From NCBI RefSeq assembly GCF_002854065.1, contig NZ_CP024147.1: a stretch of DNA of 64,000 bases; one strand, 5' to 3'. Below are positions 2,206 to 38,487 of this stretch, piece after piece (within the stretch, counting starts at the first letter, position 1; each line of letters begins with the position of its first letter). The notes under the pieces are model-generated. The model was not told the DNA's origin. It ran no database searches and worked only from the letters and a program-made list of their open reading frames with translations. Source of the DNA: Escherichia coli. GTDB taxonomy: Bacteria > Pseudomonadota > Gammaproteobacteria > Enterobacterales > Enterobacteriaceae. The translations under genes and the position numbers were made by a program.

Positions 2206-3363
2206 TTAATTATTCTCCATTTGTTTTGCAACATCCATAATGTGGTAAAGCGGTACTCTGTTCTTAGCTAACTCCACCATGGCGTTCATATAAGGTACCA
2301 TGGTTGAAAAAAGGATTTTATAACCTTCGCAAAAATAAGAAACAGTCTCATTGTTTACTTTAGTAATACGATGCTTAGGACAACCGCCATTGCAGATAGG
2401 TTTATATACACATTTCAGACATTTCGCTGAAATCCGTTTTTTTTGCGCTGTCAGTTGTACACTGTTCGTCGTTTTGAGTTCAGATTTATTAATGTTTCCA
2501 ATTTTGTACTGTGGATAGACAAAATGGTCGCATTCGTAAATGTCTCCATTACTTTCAACAACCAGATTATCCTTGCAGGACTCCTGGAAAATACAACTGG
2601 TATGCCCATTCCCCAAAAAACGGCTGACAAAGCTTTCAAACTGACGGATGAAAATTTCACCCACATCGTTTTTAACCCATTGCATAAAAATGGTTGACAT
2701 AAACTTGCCATAAGCCGTGGGAGGCACAGAAAAATCAATGATGCGGAATGTGTTCTCACTATGACCACTGAAATCAATATTCGGCGTCCCGGTTTCGAGC
2801 AATTCGATAAATTGCATATGTTTACTGCCGATAGATTTTAAAAAATGATAAACCTCAAGAGGGTAATGGACATTAACGTTATTAATGACGGTTAACGTAT
2901 TAAACTCTACTTGATATGATTTCAGACGCTCGATGGCTGCTATCACTTTTGCAAAAGTACCGTTACCTGAATTACTGCGTCTGTAACGGTCATGTAGCTC
3001 CTGGGGTCCATCGATCGAGATACCAACCAGAAACTCATGTTCTTTGAGAAAGGCACACCATTCATTATTCAATAAAATGCCATTCGTTTGTAATGCATTA
3101 AAAATACGTTTTTGGCCTGCATAGCGTTGTTGATAGTGAATAACTTTACGGAAAAAATCCAGGCCAGCCAGAGTGGGTTCACCGCCTTGCCAGGTAAAAT
3201 AGACCTGATTGCCAGACGCTGCGATATATTGTTTGATGAACTCTTTCAGAGTGCTGTCATCCATCCATTTTTCATGAGTAAACTGCGACTCTTTTTCAAG
3301 GTAAAAACAGTAATCACATTTGAGATTACATTGAAAACTGTAGGGCTTGGCTGTAACGTGCAT
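2206..3363 (-). CDS. ydeM: radical-SAM anaerobic sulfatase-maturating enzyme homologue
   Basis: ORF 2206..3378; CxxxCxxC radical-SAM motif CNLKCDYC near N-terminus and C-terminal Cys clusters; start placed at second Met to give the recalled 385 aa (alternative start 3378). Confidence 0.8.
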
Positions 3364-5529: not shown

Positions 5530-5544
5530 GGTAATGACTCCAAC

Positions 5545-6048
5545 TTATTGATAGTGTTTTATGTTCAGATAATGCCCGATGACTTTGTCATGCAGCTCCA
5601 CCGATTTTGAGAACGACAGCGACTTCCGTCCCAGCCGTGCCAGGTGCTGCCTCAGATTCAGGTTATGCCGCTCAATTCGCTGCGTATATCGCTTGCTGAT
5701 TACGTGCAGCTTTCCCTTCAGGCGGGATTCATACAGCGGCCAGCCATCCGTCATCCATATCACCACGTCAAAGGGTGACAGCAGGCTCATAAGACGCCCC
5801 AGCGTCGCCATAGTGCGTTCACCGAATACGTGCGCAACAACCGTCTTCCGGAGCCTGTCATACGCGTAAAACAGCCAGCGCTGGCGCGATTTAGCCCCGA
5901 CGTATCCCCACTGTTCGTCCATTTCCGCGCAGACGATGACGTCACTGCCCGGCTGTATGCGCGAGGTTACCGACTGCGGCCTGAGTTTTTTAAATGGCGG
6001 AAAATCGTGTTGAGGCCAACGCCCATAATGCGGGCGGTTGCCCGGCAT
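5545..6048 (-). CDS. insB: IS1 InsB frame (transposase made as InsAB' by -1 frameshift)
   Basis: 167-aa [19 protein letters not shown]... identical in both IS1 copies; overlaps insA in the -1 frame. Confidence 0.9.
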
Positions 6049-6242
6049 CCAACGCCATTCATGGCCATATCAATGATTTTCTGGTGCGTACCGGGTTGAG
6101 AAGCGGTGTAAGTGAACTGCAGTTGCCATGTTTTACGGCAGTGAGAGCAGAGATAGCGCTGATGTCCGGCAGTGCTTTTGCCGTTACGCACCACCCCGTC
6201 AGTAGCTGAACAGGAGGGACAGCTGATAGAAACAGAAGCCAC
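5967..6242 (-). CDS. insA: IS1 InsA (zinc-finger transposition inhibitor)
   Basis: 91-aa [42 protein letters not shown] with CxxC...CxxC. Confidence 0.9.
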
Positions 6243-6275
6243 TGGAGCACCTCAAAAACACCATCATACACTAAA

Positions 6276-7037
6276 TCAGTAAGTTGGCAGCATCACCGTG
6301 TTGTCCGTGTTCATACCGGTGTGCCTTTGACAACGGTACTCCTTAGAAACTCTCTTCGGACTGTTGCCGAAATGTTTGCGGAACGCATAAATAAAATAAG
6401 ATGTACTGGCATAACCACATTGTTCGGCAATTTTATTGACTGAACCTTCTACGCGTATCAAATTTTTTGCGTGCTGCATTCTGGCATCTAAAAGAATCTG
6501 TGAGAATGTCGTTTGCTCTTGCTTAAGTTTTTTCTTCAACAGGCTTTCACTGATGTACAGGCAGTCACAAATATCTTTCAGCTTCCATGGGTGCGCCAGC
6601 TTCATGTTGACAATATTTCTCACTTTCCCGGAAACGGATAGCACACCGTTAGTTAATAGTGTAATGAAACCTTTGCATGCGGCAAAAATAGACAGGCAAG
6701 AAAAAAGCAAAAGTTCTGAAAAATTATGATGATTGCGTTCTTCCGAGTTGAGATAAGCAATCATTTCATTAAGCAATCCAGTCGGTACATTAGAAGCACG
6801 TAAAAACTTCGCAGGAACAGGCACCGTCACTGTCTGGATGTTAGTGCATTGTAGATATTTTTTAATGGTATTTTCATTAAATCCGATTTCTTTAAAATGC
6901 CGCTCATAAGGTTCAAAATGCGTACGAACAGCGTTATCTACCATCAGGATCTCGCCGTCAGAGAAGGCGTAATCTTTATCTAAAATGTTAGCGTTGAAGG
7001 CATGATGAATAAATATAACAGAACAAACGAGCGACAT
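6276..7037 (-). CDS. ydeO: AraC-family acid-resistance regulator; last 6 codons and stop supplied by the IS1 terminus
   Basis: 253-aa ORF with C-terminal AraC HTH region; reading frame crosses the IS1 junction at 6297/6298 and ends ...NTVMLPTY inside the IS1 end. Confidence 0.85.
   Translation of the reverse strand: MSLVCSVIFIHHAFNANILDKDYAFSDGEILMVDNAVRTHFEPYERHFKEIGFNENTIKKYLQCTNIQTVTVPVPAKFLRASNVPTGLLNEMIAYLNSEERNHHNFSELLLFSCLSIFAACKGFITLLTNGVLSVSGKVRNIVNMKLAHPWKLKDICDCLYISESLLKKKLKQEQTTFSQILLDARMQHAKNLIRVEGSVNKIAEQCGYASTSYFIYAFRKHFGNSPKRVSKEYRCQRHTGMNTDNTVMLPTY
6298..6306. repeat. 9-bp target-site duplication GTGTTGTCC (right copy) of IS1 copy 1, inside ydeO coding sequence
   Basis: identical to 5521..5529. 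Confidence 0.9.
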
Positions 7038-21839: not shown

Positions 21840-21877
21840 GGGGGAACCGCAGAATTCGGAAAAAATCGTACGCTAAG
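21840..21877. repeat. left terminal inverted repeat GGGGGAACCGCAGAATTCGGAAAAAATCGTACGCTAAG
   Basis: matches the right end in inverted orientation at 35 of 38 positions; whether the first G (21840) belongs to the repeat is ambiguous. Confidence 0.8.
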
Positions 21878-22028
21878 CTAACGGTGTTCTCGTGACAGCT
21901 CTTTGACTAGGCTTTCTAAGGCCATTCTGATAGCCCTGACTTCCTGAAAAGCCATGGCTAAAATTTGTGCGGCTAAAAGGGATAACCGATGGTAAAGTAA
22001 GTTATCCCTGTCGAGATACTGAAAAGCG

Positions 22029-23606
22029 TTATCCTCGTTTTTCCCAAAACTGTTTTGCCAGTTCGCTCAGAGCGCTAGTTAACTGAGCGACAGATTTCGC
22101 ACTTTGCAAATTATTCTGCCCGGTCTGTACATTGGTATCAGCAGCATCGCGTATATTGATAATACTGCGGTTTATGTCTTCACTTACTGCTCCCTGCTGC
22201 TCGACCGCAGTCGCTATTTGCGCGTTCATGTCGGTAATTTCGTTAACGCGTTGGCCAATTCCATCAAGAGCTGTAGCTGCTTCCTCTGCGTGAGCTACAC
22301 TCGTGTGCGCTTGCCGACTACTTTGCTCCATGACTGTAACAGCGGATTGCGCTCGCTCTTGTAGAGCGCTGATCATGCTTTGAATATCCGTTGTCGATTG
22401 CTGTGTGCGAGCAGCAAGACTGCGAACCTCATCGGCGACAACAGCAAAACCACGCCCCTGCTCACCAGCACGCGCGGCCTCAATTGCTGCGTTGAGTGCC
22501 AACAAATTCGTTTGCTCGGCGATCCCTCGTATAACGTCAAGAACTTTTGATATCTCGTTACTTTGACCTTCAAGCTCATGAATAACCTGAGTGGCTTGCC
22601 TAATTTCACCTTCAAGGGCAGTGATTGACTGGCTTGTGTGGGCTACCAGACGCTGGCCAGATGCCGTCTCAGTGTCTGCTCTTCCGGCCGCATCTGCAGC
22701 ATGCTGTGCATTGCTCGCAACCTCTTGAATGCTTGCCACCATTTGGTTTACTGCCGTTGCTATTTGATCTGTCTCTGCCTGCTGCTCAACTGTAAGTACA
22801 TTGCTTGACTCAATATCCTTTAGTAGGCCTCGGGTGTGTTCGCTAAGCCGATTTGATGCATCACCTATGCGACCTACTATGGCGCCTGTTTCAGCTTGCA
22901 TCATTCGTAAAGCAAACTCTATTTGGCCAAACTCATCGGTGCGCCCAGTGTAGAGGGATTGACTTAATGGGTTATTGGAAATATTCCTGGCTCTTTCAAC
23001 CAGTCTTCCAAGAGGAGAGAGAATAGCCAAAACACTAACAGAGCTTAAGCTTCCTGACATTAAAGTGGCTAACAATAAGCTGCTTATTGATGTATCAGTA
23101 AGCATGCCGGCAGCCATTGCGCTTGATATAATACTACCCCATATGAGCAAGAGTATTTTCACGGAAAAGCTAGCAGCCAATTTCGGCCTCGCGGCCTTCC
23201 CGCTTCTCAATTGAGCATATAATTTTTCCGCAGCCAAAACCTGCTCAGGTTCAGGCTTGGTCCTTACAGACTGGTATTCAACAATCGAACCATTCTTAGC
23301 TATTGGCGTTACATAAGCACTTACCCAATAGTGGTCGCCATTTTTACAGCGATTTTTTACTAGCCCCATCCATGAGCGGCCAGATTTTAATGTACTCCAC
23401 ATATGCTCAAATGCAGCAGGCGGCATATCTGGGTGTCTTACGATGTTGTGAGGCTGGCCTAATAGTTCTTCCTCAGTGAAACCACTGATTTTAATGAAGT
23501 CAGGATTAACGTACGTGATATGGCTTTGAGGGGAGGTAGTCGAAAGAATATTGGCATCTTTTGGGAGTTCTAAGTTTCGACCCGTCACTGGTAAATTCTG
23601 GCGCAT
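22029..23606 (-). CDS. Aer-like PAS-domain / methyl-accepting-chemotaxis signalling-domain protein (transposon cargo, orfI)
   Basis: 525-aa ORF; N-terminal PAS block resembling Aer ([37 protein letters not shown]), central hydrophobic segment, C-terminal MCP signalling region [35 protein letters not shown]. Confidence 0.85.
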
Positions 23607-23915
23607 AAGAACCTCAAGGGTTGGCTGTTTTATTTTATTGTTTTCGGCATTAAGCCCAATTTCTTGAGCGTTACGATAAAGCTAGCATGGAAACGATAGG
23701 TGCAAGCAAGTTAAGGGTTGCATCGCGCATGTCAATCTAGGCTATACCCTAACTTGATGTCAGGCAGGGCCGCGCCGCTTCGTCAGAATAGAGTCTGCTT
23801 TCCCATTTTTTGACACATGCCCGCGAAGGTTATAGATTTCAGCCTGACAGAAATGGGCTTTGAGGCACAACGGAACAGAAAGTGCACTTAAGCCGCCTTC
23901 AACCAAGGAGACATC
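23607..23915. promoter_or_regulatory. res (resolution) region with divergent promoters between orfI and tnpR
   Basis: TGTCAGGC...GCCTGACA-type dyads (about 23760..23860) upstream of tnpR, typical placement for Tn21-subgroup res sites; exact subsites not resolved. Confidence 0.5.
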
Positions 23916-24476
23916 GTGCAGGGGCACCGCATCGGCTACGTCCGGGTCAGCAGCTTTGACCAGAACCCGGAACGCCAGCTGGAACAAACCCAGGTGAGCA
24001 AGGTGTTCACCGACAAGGCATCGGGCAAGGACACCCAGCGCCCCCAGCTCGAAGCGCTGCTGAGCTTCGTCCGCGAAGGCGATACAGTGGTGGTGCACAG
24101 CATGGATCGGCTGGCCCGCAACCTCGATGACCTGCGTCGCTTGGTACAGAAGCTGACTCAGCGCGGCGTGCGCATCGAGTTCCTGAAGGAGGGCCTGGTG
24201 TTCACTGGCGAGGACTCGCCGATGGCCAACCTGATGCTGTCGGTGATGGGGGCCTTCGCTGAGTTCGAGCGCGCCCTGATCCGCGAGCGGCAGCGTGAGG
24301 GCATCGCCTTGGCCAAGCAGCGTGGCGCGTACCGGGGCCGCAAGAAAGCCCTGTCCGATGAGCAGGCTGCTACCCTGCGGCAGCGAGCGACGGCCGGCGA
24401 GCCCAAGGCGCAGCTTGCCCGCGAGTTCAACATCAGCCGGGAAACCCTCTACCAGTACCTCCGCACGGACGACTGA
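23916..24476 (+). CDS. tnpR: serine resolvase TnpR
   Basis: 186 aa, GTG start with AAGGAG RBS; catalytic N-terminus IGYVRVSSFDQN and C-terminal HTH. Confidence 0.95.
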   Translation: MQGHRIGYVRVSSFDQNPERQLEQTQVSKVFTDKASGKDTQRPQLEALLSFVREGDTVVVHSMDRLARNLDDLRRLVQKLTQRGVRIEFLKEGLVFTGEDSPMANLMLSVMGAFAEFERALIRERQREGIALAKQRGAYRGRKKALSDEQAATLRQRATAGEPKAQLAREFNISRETLYQYLRTDD

Positions 24477-24479
24477 CAC

Positions 24480-27446
24480 ATGCCGCGTCGCTTGATCCTC
24501 TCGGCCACGGAGCGGGACACCCTGCTTGCGCTGCCGGAAAGCCAGGATGACCTGATCCGCTACTACACCTTCAACGACTCCGACCTGTCGCTGATCCGCC
24601 AGCGACGCGGCGACGCCAACCGCCTCGGCTTCGCCGTGCAGCTCTGCCTGCTGCGCTACCCCGGTTACGCGCTGGGAACCGACAGCGAGCTGCCCGAGCC
24701 GGTCATCCTGTGGGTGGCGAAGCAAGTCCAGGCCGAGCCGGCGAGCTGGGCAAAGTACGGCGAGCGCGACGTGACCCGTCGCGAGCATGCCCAGGAACTG
24801 CGCACCTACCTGCAACTGGCCCCGTTCGGCCTGTCCGACTTCCGCGCCCTGGTGCGCGAGCTAACCGAGCTGGCCCAGCAGACCGACAAAGGCTTGCTGC
24901 TGGCCGGTCAGGCCCTGGAGAGCCTACGGCAGAAACGACGCATCCTGCCGGCGCTGAGCGTGATTGACCGGGCCTGCTCGGAAGCCATTGCGCGAGCCAA
25001 TCGGCGGGTCTACCGCGCCCTGGTCGAACCACTCACGGACTCGCATCGGGCCAAGCTGGACGAGCTGTTGAAGCTCAAGGCCGGCAGCAGCATCACCTGG
25101 TTGACCTGGCTGCGCCAGGCACCGCTGAAACCCAACTCTCGGCACATGCTGGAACACATCGAGCGGCTGAAGACATTTCAGTTGGTGGACTTGCCCGAAG
25201 GCCTGGGCCGGCACATCCACCAGAACCGCCTGCTCAAGCTGGCCCGCGAGGGTGGGCAGATGACGCCCAAAGACCTCGGTAAGTTCGAGCCGCAGCGCCG
25301 CTACGCGACCCTGGCCGCCGTGGTGCTGGAGAGCACCGCGACCGTGATCGATGAGCTGGTCGATCTGCATGACCGCATCCTGGTCAAGCTGTTCAGCGGC
25401 GCGAAGCACAAGCATCAGCAGCAGTTCCAGAAGCAGGGCAAGGCGATCAACGACAAGGTGCGCCTGTACTCCAGGATCGGCCAGGCGCTGCTGGAAGCGA
25501 AGGAAAGCGGCAGCGACCCCTATGCCGCCATCGAGGCGGTGATTCCCTGGGACGAGTTCACCGAGAGCGTCAGCGAGGCCGAGCTGCTGGCCCGGCCGGA
25601 AGGCTTCGACCACCTGCACCTGGTCGGCGAGAACTTCGCCACCCTGCGCCGTTACACGCCGGCCTTGCTGGAGGTGCTGGAACTGCGCGCCGCGCCGGCC
25701 GCGCAAGGCGTGCTGGCAGCCGTGCAGACCCTGCGTGAGATGAACGCCGACAACCTGCGCAAGGTGCCGGCCGATGCACCCACGGCCTTCATCAAGCCGC
25801 GCTGGAAGCCGCTGGTGATCACCCCGGAAGGCCTCGACCGGAAATTCTACGAAATCTGCGCCCTGTCCGAGCTGAAGAACGCCCTGCGCTCCGGCGACAT
25901 CTGGGTCAAGGGCTCGCGGCAGTTCCGCGACTTCGACGACTACCTGCTGCCGGCCGAGAAGTTCGCCGCACTCAAGCGCGAGCAGGCCCTGCCCCTGGCG
26001 ATCAACCCGAACAGCGACCAGTACCTGGAAGAGCGTTTGCAGCTGCTGGACGAGCAGTTGGCCACCGTCACCCGCCTGGCCAAGGACAACGAGCTGCCCG
26101 ATGCCATCCTCACCGAGTCAGGGCTGAAAATCACCCCGCTGGATGCGGCGGTGCCGGATCGGGCGCAGGCGCTGATCGACCAAACCAGCCAGTTACTGCC
26201 GCGCATCAAGATCACCGAACTGCTGATGGACGTGGACGACTGGACGGGCTTCAGCCGCCACTTCACCCACTTGAAGGACGGGGCCGAGGCCAAAGACAGG
26301 ACGTTGCTGCTGTCCGCAATCCTCGGTGATGCGATCAACCTCGGGCTGACCAAGATGGCCGAGTCGAGCCCCGGCCTGACCTACGCCAAGCTGTCCTGGC
26401 TGCAAGCCTGGCACATCCGCGACGAAACCTATTCGGCGGCCTTGGCCGAGCTGGTCAACCACCAGTATCGCCACGCCTTTGCCGCCCACTGGGGCGACGG
26501 CACGACCTCATCCTCCGATGGCCAGTGCTTCCGCGCGGGTGGCCGGGGCGAGAGCACCGGGCACGTCAACCCGAAGTACGGTAGCGAGCCGGGACGGCTG
26601 TTCTATACCCATATCTCCGACCAGTACGCGCCGTTCAGCACCCGCGTGGTGAATGTCGGCGTCCGCGATTCCACCTATGTGCTCGACGGCCTGCTGTACC
26701 ACGAGTCCGACCTGCGGATCGAGGAGCACTACACCGACACGGCCGGCTTCACCGATCACGTCTTTGCCCTGATGCACCTGCTAGGCTTCCGCTTCGCGCC
26801 GCGCATCCGCGACCTCGGCGAAACCAAGCTGTACGTGCCGCAGGGCGTGCAAGCCTACCCGACGTTGCGCCCGCTGATCGGCGGCACCCTGAACATCAAG
26901 CACGTGCGTGCCCACTGGGACGACATCCTGCGCCTGGCCAGCTCGATCAAGCAGGGCACCGTCACCGCCTCGCTGATGCTGCGCAAGCTCGGCAGCTACC
27001 CGCGCCAGAACGGACTGGCCGTGGCCCTGCGCGAGCTGGGCCGGATCGAGCGCACGCTGTTCATCCTGGACTGGCTGCAAAGTGTTGAACTGCGCCGCCG
27101 CGTGCATGCCGGCCTGAACAAAGGTGAGGCGCGCAACTCGCTGGCCAGGGCGGTGTTCTTCAACCGCCTTGGGGAAATCAGGGATCGGAGCTTCGAGCAG
27201 CAGCGCTACCGGGCCAGCGGCCTCAACCTGGTGACGGCGGCTATCGTGCTGTGGAACACGGTGTACCTGGAACGCGCCACCCAGGGGTTGGTCGAGGCCG
27301 GCAAGCCGGTGGACGGCGAGCTGCTGCAATTCCTGTCGCCGCTGGGCTGGGAGCACATCAACCTAACCGGCGATTACGTCTGGCGGCAGAGCCGCAGACT
27401 GGAAGACGGGAAGTTTCGGCCCTTACGGATGCCCGGAAAACCTTAG
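24480..27446 (+). CDS. tnpA: Tn3-family DDE transposase TnpA
   Basis: 988-aa ORF starting 4 bp after the tnpR stop; length and organisation typical of Tn21-subgroup transposases. Confidence 0.95.
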
Positions 27447-27479
27447 CGTACGATTTTTTCCGAATTCTGCGGGCTCCCC
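27442..27479. repeat. right terminal inverted repeat (complement reads GGGGAGCCCGCAGAATTCGGAAAAAATCGTACGCTAAG)
   Basis: inverted copy of the left end; overlaps the last codons of tnpA. Confidence 0.85.
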
Positions 27480-27922: not shown

Positions 27923-29515
27923 CTATAACCCAGGCGCTTTCCATAACGACGTCGTCAGTCCATGATCAACCAGCCCCAGCTGATCCTGATAAACTGCCTG
28001 CCACTTATCGCGTGAATCCTGATAAAGTTCATGCTTTTCCGGGTCTGGTGTGTGCGTCCGTTCCCAGCGAACCAGGCGTTCTCCGGTTTCTGCCATTGAT
28101 GAAAAAATTCCGGCACCGACGCCAGCTGCAATGGCACATCCTAATGCAGTGGCTTCTTTGACCACCGGAATATTGACGGGTAATCCCGAGACATCAGCGA
28201 GAATTTGACTCCATAATTTCCCTTTTGAACCTCCGCCTGCAAAGACTAACGATGAAGGATGAATATTCGAGAAATCAGCAATTTGCTGCAAGTTACACGC
28301 TGATACAATCGCCGCATTTTCTTCCAGCGCACGAAACAATGTCGCTTTGTTACATTTATCCGGGTCAATGGATAAGTTAATAAAGGAAGGTGCGGCGTGA
28401 TACCAGGTTTTAAAGCGCATTCTGTCGGAGAATATCGGCATTACGCCCCACGACCCAGGCGGCACCCGACTGGCCATCTCTTCCAGCAGCGTATAGGTGT
28501 CGATGCCTAAACGTTCGGCAATCAGTTTTTCTTCGGCACAGAAAGCATCGCGGAACCAGCGCATGGTGAGTCCGGTAAAAAAGCTTATAGATTCAGCTTG
28601 TACCATGCCAGGAATAACATGGGGATTAACGCGCACGTTCATTTCTGGGTCTGTCACCGGCGCGGCTAAGTTTACAACTTGCTGCCAGAATGTGCCGCCA
28701 AGAACCGCGGTTTGTGCCGGACGCACAACGCCTAACCCCAGGCAACCAAGCTGCACGTCGCCTCCTCCCACGAACACCGGAGTGCCCGCCTTCAGACCGC
28801 AGAGTTCCGCCGCTTGTGAACTTACCACGCCCAGCAATGTGCCGGTTTCTTTGACAGGAGAAAGAATATCGGCACGCAGGCCAGCCATATCCAGCAATGC
28901 AGGTTTCCAGTCACGGATGGTTAGATCAAGAAGTCCCGTGGTGCCAGCGTTAGAGGGATCCACCGCAAGTTCGCCGCTGAGCATATAGGCCAGCCAGTCG
29001 CTGATCATGGTGATGGTTGATGCCTGACGGTAAATATCGGAACGATGGTGCGCCAGCCAAAGTAATCTGGGGATGGCACTTAAAGCCAGCGTTTGTCCGG
29101 TCGCGCGATAAACTTCGTTTTCAAAGGTATTGTTGTGCAGTTCTTTAAGTTCGCTAACTTCGCGCGCCGCTCTGGCATCCACATTGGCGCAGGCCCAGAT
29201 CGGTGTTCCTTCATTGTTATATAAAACAATGCCTTCACGCATCGAACATGCCGAAACGGCAGCGATATACTCCGGGGCTATGCCGGCGTTGTGCAGCGCC
29301 TGGCGCATACACTCACACGCCAGTTGCCAGTTTTTGTTGAGATCAAATTCCATAGAACCAGGAACGTCCGGTACTGCCAGATGCCGCCACTCCGCCTGTC
29401 CCACTGCTATTTGATTGCCTTCCAGGTCGAATATCACAGCCCGAATACTTCCGGTGCCTGCATCCAGCGCCATCAGGTAATACTTTGATTCTGAAGGGGT
29501 AAAGAGTCGAGCCAT
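27923..29515 (-). CDS. lsrK: autoinducer-2 kinase (FGGY carbohydrate kinase family)
   Basis: 530-aa ORF; FGGY-family N-terminus [11 protein letters not shown]; adjacent to lsrR and divergent from the lsr operon. Confidence 0.9.
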
Positions 29516-30795: not shown

Positions 30796-32330
30796 ATGCA
30801 AACGAGTGATACCCGCGCGTTACCGCTACTTTGCGCCCGCTCGGTTTATAAACAGTATTCAGGGGTTAATGTCCTGAAAGGCATCGATTTTACGTTGCAC
30901 CAGGGGGAGGTCCACGCCCTGTTCGGCGGCAATGGTGCCGGTAAATCGACGTTAATGAAGATTATTGCCGGTATTACCCCTGCTGATAGCGGTACGCTGG
31001 AGATTGGGGGCAACAACTACGTCAGATTAACGCCAGTTCATGCTCATCAGCTGGGTATTTATCTCGTTCCCCAGGAACCGCTGCTTTTCCCAAGCCTGTC
31101 GATAAAAGAAAACATCCTGTTTGGGCTGGCAAAAAAACAGCTCTCCATGCAGAAAATGAAGAACTTGCTGGCGGCGCTGGGCTGCCAGTTTGATCTGCAT
31201 AGTCTGGCAGGATCGCTGGATGTCGCCGATCGCCAAATGGTGGAAATCCTCCGCGGGCTGATGCGCGACTCGCGGATTCTGATCCTCGATGAACCTACCG
31301 CCTCGCTTACCCCTGCGGAAACCGAACGCTTGTTTAGTCGCTTGCAAGAGCTGCTTGCTACTGGCGTGGGTATTGTTTTTATCTCGCATAAGCTGCCGGA
31401 AATTCGCCAGATTGCCGATCGAATTAGCGTGATGCGCGACGGAACCATCGCCTTAAGCGGCAAAACCAGCGAACTGTCTACCGACGACATTATTCAGGCC
31501 ATCACCCCAGCGGTACGGGAAAATCGCTCTCTGCCAGCCAAAAATTATGGCTGGAGTTACCTGGCAACCGCCCACAACATGCCGCAGGAACGTCGGTGCT
31601 GACACTGGAAAATCTGACTGGCGAAGGTTTCAGGAATGTCAGCCTGACGCTAAATGCCGGAGAAATTCTGGGTCTGGCTGGGCTGGTGGGTGCCGGACGC
31701 ACAGAACTGGCCGAGACGCTCTATGGTCTACGTACTTTGCGTGGCGGACGCATTATGCTGAATGATAAAGAGATCAATAGATTATCCACTGGAGAACGTT
31801 TACTGCGCGGTCTGGTTTATCTGCCGGAAGATCGCCAGTCATCCGGACTGAATCTCGATGCTTCGCTGGCCTGGAACGTCTGCGCCCTTACTCATAACCT
31901 TCGTGGATTCTGGGCGAAAACCGCGAAAGATAATGCCACCCTGGAACGTTATCGTCGGGCGCTGAATATTAAATATAACCAACCGGAACAAGCTGCACGG
32001 ACATTATCCGGTGGTAACCAGCAAAAAATCCTGATTGCCAAATGCCTGGAAGCTTCGCCGCAAGTATTGATTGTCGATGAGCCGACGCGCGGCGTGGATG
32101 TCTCGGCGCGTAATGATATCTACCAACTGTTGCGCAGCATCGCCGCACAGAATGTGGCTGTGCTGCTTATCTCCTCTGATCTGGAAGAGATCGAACTGAT
32201 GGCAGATCGTGTGTATGTGATGCATCAGGGCGAAATTACCCACTCTGCACTGACCGGGCGCGATATTAATGTCGAGACTATTATGCGCGTTGCCTTCGGC
32301 GATAGTCAGCGTCAGGAGGCGTCATGCTGA
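30796..32330 (+). pseudogene. lsrA: AI-2 ABC transporter ATPase LsrA, split by a -1 frameshift in an A-run into ORFs 30796..31602 and 31596..32330
   Basis: two ABC ATPase halves (Walker [10 protein letters not shown] and GLVGAGRTE) in different frames; adding one A to the A4 run at 31520..31523 gives a continuous ~511-aa protein. Confidence 0.8.
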
Positions 32331-38327: not shown

Positions 38328-38487
38328 GGTTATCTTCAGGCGTGGAAAAGTCGCCCTATTAAACGTGATTACGATCACATTCTCAAGACGCTACTTACAA
38401 ATCACCTACAAAATTACAACATTAACAGGCGCTGCATGTGGCACCTGTTAATGATAAAGGCTCATAGGATGTTGTAACTAATATAAT

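Follow-up and report, generated by a model that had tools for sequence, protein, structure and literature searches.

Tn1721 is an 11-kb tetracycline-resistance transposon of the Tn3 family (Tn21 subgroup). Its published order is IR-mcp-res-tnpR-tnpA-IR-tetR(A)-tetA(A)-pecM-delta-tnpA-IR, where IR stands for inverted repeat, and the segment at its head is known as the basic transposon Tn1722, which is cryptic (PMC7319535; PMC5052281, citing Allmeier et al. 1992). Target duplications of 5 bp are given for the Tn3 family, and the transposase (TnpA) of Tn1721 is described as binding the sliding clamp DnaN through a QLxxLR motif at residues 54–59 (Tang et al., Nucleic Acids Research [NAR] 2024; PMC11417375). 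Here, we analysed a stretch of 64,000 nucleotides of the Escherichia coli contig NZ_CP024147.1 (assembly GCF_002854065.1), hereafter the window, in which an initial annotation made from the letters alone had proposed a complete Tn1722-like transposon between lsrK and an autotransporter gene. We found that the element is almost certainly a complete and ordinary Tn1722, the cryptic 5.6-kb basic transposon of Tn1721, inserted between these two genes in a recurrent landing stretch that lies between the chromosome dimer resolution site dif and a replication-termination (Ter) site.

The element occupies positions 21840–27479 (5,640 bp), exactly the interval first annotated, and comprises, together with the duplicated target, the following features:

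21834–21839, no strand: target-site duplication, left copy, TGTATT (single TGTATT at empty sites)
21840–21877, plus strand: terminal inverted repeat on the mcp side, 38 bp, GGGGGAACCGCAGAATTCGGAAAAAATCGTACGCTAAG ("IRR" in the naming of PMC5052281)
22029–23606, minus strand: mcp (orfI of Tn1721), passenger gene, 525 aa, assigned by Pfam domain matches
23607–23915, no strand: mcp–tnpR spacer, 309 bp, expected res region and divergent promoters, from its position in the published module order
23916–24476, plus strand: tnpR, serine resolvase, 186 aa, GTG start (Pfam Resolvase 2.9e-39, HTH_7 1.4e-13)
24480–27446, plus strand: tnpA, Tn3-family DDE transposase, 988 aa (NCBIfam NF033527)
27442–27479, minus strand: terminal inverted repeat on the tnpA side, on its own strand GGGGAGCCCGCAGAATTCGGAAAAAATCGTACGCTAAG ("IRL" in the naming of PMC5052281)
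27480–27485, no strand: target-site duplication, right copy, TGTATT (single TGTATT at empty sites)

The comparison with the uninterrupted intergenic region of a reference strain, which had been proposed as a check, was run with K-12 MG1655 and strain PD4. In both, the site is empty (GGTC-TGTATT-GAGT) and the two flanks of the window element abut, the sequence reading ...GTCAGAGGTC TGTATT GAGTGTTAG... Because the reference site is empty and the target is duplicated around the element, this is a genuine transposition into the lsrK–autotransporter spacer, as first annotated. The insertion site corresponds to 1,598,174–1,598,179 of K-12 (NC_000913.3), 88 bp upstream of the start codon of yneO, the ECSE_1600-family autotransporter gene, and ~440 bp past the stop codon of lsrK, which is intact (27923–29515).

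Identity of the element

The window copy has all the structural parts of Tn1722 in intact form, with res assigned by position, and shares with Tn1722 the 5,640-bp length, the 38-bp inverted repeats and the module order IR-mcp-res-tnpR-tnpA-IR (here mcp on the minus strand, the 309-bp spacer, and then tnpR and tnpA on the plus strand). The two terminal arms, each of 38 nt as initially annotated, are complementary at 35 of 38 positions (92%), and the stop codon of tnpA falls within the tnpA-side repeat. End-to-end similarity to elements of the Tn1721 family was found in hundreds of plasmid and chromosomal copies. In particular, full-length matches printed as 100.0% identical were recovered from at least 365 PLSDB plasmids (Klebsiella, Escherichia, Salmonella, Pseudomonas and other genera), and full-length matches were also present in 369 records of 336 complete E. 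coli genomes, both plasmid and chromosomal. The places where the element was found numbered 5,083 on plasmids vs 743 on chromosomes. Compared base by base with 21 distinct fetched copies, the window element was identical to 20 of them at 5,639 of 5,640 positions and to the 21st at 5,638 of 5,640, the second mismatch being a further difference of that copy's own. The label "Tn1722-like" can therefore be sharpened to Tn1722 itself.

In several of the fetched loci, tetR(A), tet(A) and a gene for a DMT (pecM-like) transporter come directly after this 5,640-bp module, and these loci hold a full Tn1721. The window element matches the head transposition module of Tn1721, including a QLCLLR motif in TnpA, but has neither the tetR(A)-tet(A)-pecM-delta-tnpA module nor a third inverted repeat. 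No tet or other resistance open reading frames (ORFs) adjoin the element in the window, and native chromosomal spacer starts directly past the tnpA-proximal repeat. The 31-nt conserved part of the repeat occurs exactly twice in the 64-kb window (0 expected by chance), and no third repeat copy was found anywhere in it. With only two repeats and no tet module, the element is therefore Tn1722 and not Tn1721. It differs from Tn1722 as described in a private amino acid change of TnpA (R683C), in a target duplication of 6 bp instead of 5 bp, and in a previously unrecorded chromosomal site within what looks like a landing zone; these additions are modest, and the element is already known and very common.

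The ORFs and their domains agree with the genes first assigned, namely a divergent Aer-like gene, a tnpR of 186 aa and a tnpA of 988 aa. The mcp product matched the Pfam domains PAS_3 (4.3e-17), HAMP (4.5e-07) and MCPsignal (6.9e-44), laid out as a PAS fold at residues 31–114, HAMP at 194–239 and a methyl-accepting chemotaxis protein (MCP) signalling domain at 325–486, an architecture for which Aer-like is a fair label. Against NCBIfam it matched MCP-type families only, with every match under its equivalog cut-off, and its DNA is identical to copies annotated as WP_001323889.1, which RefSeq names a PAS domain-containing methyl-accepting chemotaxis protein. This PAS-HAMP-MCP passenger has no known role. 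TnpR carries the serine motif YVRVSS in its N-terminus and has the same length as the RefSeq coding sequence of WP_001161490.1. TnpA matched NF033527 (Tn3 family transposase) with 1286.6 bits (cut-off 500) over profile positions 2–954 of 954, and its residues 5–984 align with the transposase structure 7QD8 of Tn4430 (E = 6.6e-229). Tn4430 (structures 7QD4 and 7QD8) is a distant relative from a Gram-positive host. The homology between the two transposases extends over the entire length and takes in the SSSDG catalytic motif, but Tn4430 resolves by the tyrosine recombinase system TnpI/irs, unlike elements with a serine resolvase and res.

The mcp–tnpR spacer is expected to hold res, given its position and the identity of its sequence to that of other copies. 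It is dotted with TGTCA/TGACA motifs (read by eye), and contains promoter-like hexamers at 23810–23838 (plus strand) and 23763–23734 (minus strand), whose number is not above chance (3 vs 2.6 expected). Weighing against this assignment, a search for short inverted repeats over the spacer returned nothing that could mark res subsites.

The contrast between a GC-rich block and AT-rich flanks, put forward in the initial annotation, holds only in part. The tnpR and tnpA genes contain 65.6% and 65.9% GC, respectively, and the intergenic DNA immediately flanking the element contains 31–32%, but the IR-mcp-res part (21840–23915) has 47.3%, like the remainder of the window (47.4%). The many long antisense ORFs reported there were recovered (5 of at least 100 aa against tnpR and tnpA); coding DNA of 66% GC tends to yield such ORFs.

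A single base is private to the window copy:

26526, plus strand: T in the window, C in 21/21 other fetched copies (CGC to TGC, TnpA R683C)

Residue 683 lies three positions after D680, the Asp of the catalytic motif, which sits in the conserved SSSDGQ stretch. It seems unlikely, though worth weighing, that the change beside the catalytic Asp disables TnpA and has left this copy a crippled, fixed relic. Such an effect would fit a non-conservative replacement in a nearly invariant SSSDGQ-F motif, at a position where the Tn4430 transposase also has Arg in the alignment, and no gene encoding exactly this 988-aa TnpA, with Cys at 683, was present in an index of 153 billion genes. We searched TnpA residues 600–779 in 1.84 billion representative proteins and tabulated 143 relatives. 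D680 was kept in 139 of them and S678, S679, Q682 and F684 were nearly invariant, but position 683 itself was variable (R 57, F 38, N 15, H 9, Y 9, S 4). R683 was consequently ruled out as an invariant position of the catalytic motif, and we do not claim inactivation. Because the position varies across the family, R683C may well be tolerated by the transposase; the tnpA reading frame is intact, and a base-calling error at 26526 is possible.

Location near the replication terminus

Three features bear on where the element landed:

13639–13666, minus strand: dif, chromosome dimer resolution site, exact 28-bp match
38467–38481 (38467–38487 also given), plus strand: Ter-type replication-termination site, GGATGTTGTAACTAA; from 38467 onwards GGATGTTGTAACTAATAT
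24639–24656, plus strand: predicted DnaN (beta-clamp) binding motif QLCLLR, TnpA codons 54–59 (from the translation; motif from PMC11417375)

Measured from the insertion, dif is 8.2 kb to the left and the Ter-type site 11.0 kb to the right, the two sites being 24.8 kb apart here and ~18.4 kb apart without Tn1722 and the insertion sequence (IS) IS1. The window holds both dif and a Ter-type site, which makes the whole of it the replication-termination centre of this chromosome. The Ter-type site occupies the place of TerC on the K-12 map and is presumably TerC. Its core, ATGTTGTAACTAA, is common with terB as printed in PMC6315707.

The interaction with DnaN is reported to be needed for Tn1721 transposition, on the basis of Q54A/L55A/R59A mutants, and in a mating-in assay 3/3 chromosomal Tn1721 insertions fell within ~25 kb near terC, where clockwise forks terminate; the authors caution that three events are few (PMC11417375). 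The TnpA of the window has QLCLLR at exactly residues 54–59, those mutated in that study. It thus carries the QLxxLR clamp motif, and is predicted from its sequence to bind DnaN. The location of the insertion is most simply explained by this published behaviour of Tn1721 TnpA, that is, DnaN binding with a preference for the termination region: TnpA would contact DnaN through QLCLLR, favouring the region where replication terminates. The location corroborates the published targeting model and reveals no new one.

We surveyed natural chromosomal copies by taking all chromosomal records among the 60 top-listed E. coli matches, which were tied on score, and reading their flanking annotation. After merging strains with a shared junction, 16 distinct chromosomal sites remained:

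ydcF (strain BE2-5)
trg (strains 63-2 and T28R)
ydcK (strain 2017.04.03CC)
yddE, two different positions (strains EC21Z-063; S171-1)
yddA/yddB (strain EC42405)
fimbrial usher adjoining hipA (strain 19SZHZ869Rt)
island between ydeT and hipA (strains T16R and YY76-1)
yneO (strain FORC_042)
lsrK–yneO spacer (strain ST540)
lsrK (strain 13P460A)
Qin prophage tail-fibre gene (strain DSM 103246)
hemP–aroH (strains 13C1079T and EC71)
exception outside the terminus: IS1 near mnmE (strain 127)
exception: IS-rich region beside IS26 and IS903B (ZF34/ZF31)
exception: IS-rich region beside IS1, full Tn1721 copy (LHM10-1)

The IS-rich regions of ZF34/ZF31 and LHM10-1 look like resistance islands. Thirteen of the 16 sites fall in the K-12-equivalent interval from ydcF to aroH, ~300 kb or 6.5% of the genome (binomial P ~2e-13); the interval spans roughly 1.49–1.79 Mb of the K-12 map. 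Two further strains, S1-CAM-01-A and CUPF12, were found by a locus-specific query and were left out of the binomial test. Together with them, six independent insertions lie within ~5 kb of lsrK–yneO (window, S1-CAM-01-A, CUPF12, FORC_042, ST540 and 13P460A), at ~16431, 18896, 21723, 21834, 27702 and 28096 in window coordinates, and 4/6 of these are within ~0.7 kb around the AT-rich spacer. Natural E. coli thus probably has a strong Tn1722/Tn1721 landing zone around dif/TerC, with a micro-hot-spot at lsrK–yneO (at least six insertions in ~5 kb) that includes the window copy. This also qualifies the initial description of the element as acquired DNA not expected at a K-12-type locus: it is absent from K-12 MG1655 and PD4, but the stretch is a recurrent landing zone. 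A literature search for papers naming both Tn1721 and lsrK found none.

The survey pattern agrees with the published Tn1721 experiment and with the terminus preference of Tn917. The chromosomal insertions of Tn917, another member of the Tn3 family, cluster where replication terminates, as do the natural Tn1722/Tn1721 copies surveyed here, although Tn917 is a different element with a Firmicutes host and its data come from mutant libraries, whereas ours come from natural isolates; its terminus-region hot spot is cited in PMC11417375 and in bioRxiv 10.64898/2026.05.30.728999. Taken with the other natural insertions, the location of the window copy lends support to a recent proposal in which the sliding clamp directs Tn1721-type transposases to the replication terminus. 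If the landing zone is real, it would provide population-scale support for a DnaN/termination targeting model that has so far drawn on three mapped experimental chromosomal insertions, and would single out a particular locus at which TnpA can reach terminating forks.

Several points weigh against such a landing zone. The K-12 coordinates of the flanking genes are approximate, the order of tied matches may be non-random and could have inflated the enrichment at the terminus, and part of the pattern could stem from insertions being tolerated in this gene-poor, accessory-rich region. Taken to its end, the last point would mean that the element is real but that its location reflects chance or tolerance, with dispensable terminus genes and no replication-linked targeting. 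All targets seen are indeed non-essential genes or spacers and AT-rich (with duplications such as ATCAA, TATCA, TATTA, TAAAA and ATTAA), the Tn3 family is known to favour AT-rich DNA, and the terminus-region insertions had no clear orientation bias (9 vs 6) and no switch across dif. Yet dispensable AT-rich DNA occurs all round the chromosome and 13 of the 16 sites still lie in 6.5% of it; in the mating-in assay, an independent experiment, all chromosomal insertions were likewise near terC, and transposition was linked to the binding of DnaN. We therefore consider location by chance or tolerance improbable and favour targeting of the termination region by TnpA.

Two of the surveyed loci had further traits. 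At the trg insertion (63-2 and T28R; locus ~2996–3000 and ~2496–2500), the 5 bp to the left of the element are TATCT, which are also the 5 bp after the internal inverted repeat in all the full Tn1721 copies examined (TATCTCATCTGC...), perhaps by coincidence or perhaps as a trace of the copy's origin. In T16R, the island between ydeT/yneL and hipA, beside dif, is ~25 kb long (locus ~10500–36000) and was itself hit by Tn1722. It contains a type I restriction-modification system, two site-specific integrases and repeated pairs of helix-turn-helix (HTH) and hypothetical genes.

Target-site duplication and junctions

To define the duplication, the 60-nt left and right flanks of the window element were mapped onto four reference loci (K-12, PD4, 13P460A and S1-CAM-01-A). 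The mapped flanks overlapped by 6 nt in each of the four, which shows TGTATT to be duplicated at either end of the element. A 5-bp duplication accompanied by a chance match is excluded by the length of the element, exactly 5,640 bp, which the other copies share. The 6 bp depart from the 5 bp characteristic of the Tn3 family, which counts against an ordinary insertion. However, among 13 other distinct natural sites with both junctions seen, the duplication was 5 bp in 10, 6 bp in 2 (FORC_042, and the site common to 13C1079T and EC71) and 4 bp in 1 (CUPF12), and the 6 bp of FORC_042 and the 4 bp of CUPF12 were verified against uninterrupted yneO. A 6-bp duplication is thus a minority outcome, neither an anomaly nor a reason for exclusion, and the 5-bp rule describes the majority behaviour.

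The likely route onto the chromosome is replicative transposition, with a plasmid as the presumed donor. In this process, TnpA, a DDE transposase, would bind the 38-bp terminal repeats, cut the two target strands at staggered positions, separated here by 6 bp, and join the 3' ends of the element to the target. Replication through the element would then yield a cointegrate, which TnpR would resolve at res in the mcp–tnpR spacer, one copy remaining between the TGTATT duplicates. Such a mechanism is established for the Tn3 family, and we infer it for the window copy by analogy.

The exact junction was absent from 5,426 complete E. coli genomes (left-junction query), and a 34-nt junction string had no match in GTDB representative genomes; hence no independent assembly confirms the junction, a further point to be set against the insertion. 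The one left-junction match of 90%, in S1-CAM-01-A, was not the same insertion, as it lies 111 bp away. Since Tn1722 is also far commoner on plasmids than on chromosomes, by the numbers of places given above, a plasmid-borne contig could in principle have been misjoined into the chromosome. We regard such an assembly artefact as very improbable: both flanks are contiguous chromosomal DNA, joined directly in K-12 and PD4, the presence of precisely 6 bp of target on either side of the element is a signature of transposition and not of a chimeric join, and similar chromosomal insertions with their own duplications occur in many finished genomes. In particular, so precise a duplication, bordered by native DNA at either end, speaks strongly against a chimeric assembly. 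Finally, that the block is a piece of a larger resistance element (a full Tn1721 or a multidrug-resistance island) can be dismissed with near certainty, since, although a full Tn1721 with tet(A) accounts for many of the chromosomal copies elsewhere and others lie within IS26/IS903 islands, the window has just two repeat copies, native lsrK–yneO spacer directly outside both, and no tet or other resistance ORFs beside them.

A stand-alone Tn1722 at this site can serve to mark earlier plasmid traffic into the strain. It also constitutes a portable homology patch and a transposition module of the Tn1721 family that could recruit resistance genes; Tn1722-based blaKPC-2 units have been described (PMC4541600).

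Neighbouring loci

The window contains two identical 768-bp IS1 copies, at 20454–21221 and 5530–6297, with 9-bp duplications AACCGTCCC and GTGTTGTCC, respectively. The copy at 20454–21221 splits the yneO/ECSE_1600-family autotransporter gene into 15549–20420 and 21195–21746. Because this gene was already split by IS1, Tn1722 newly inactivates no host gene; this textbook cryptic transposon, which thousands of plasmids carry, disrupts nothing here that was still intact. On the other side of lsrK, lsrA is represented by two overlapping ORFs (268 aa and 244 aa) at 30796–32330, instead of one gene of ~511 aa, which suggests a frameshift, and the lsr operon for autoinducer-2 (AI-2) uptake may be defective in this strain.

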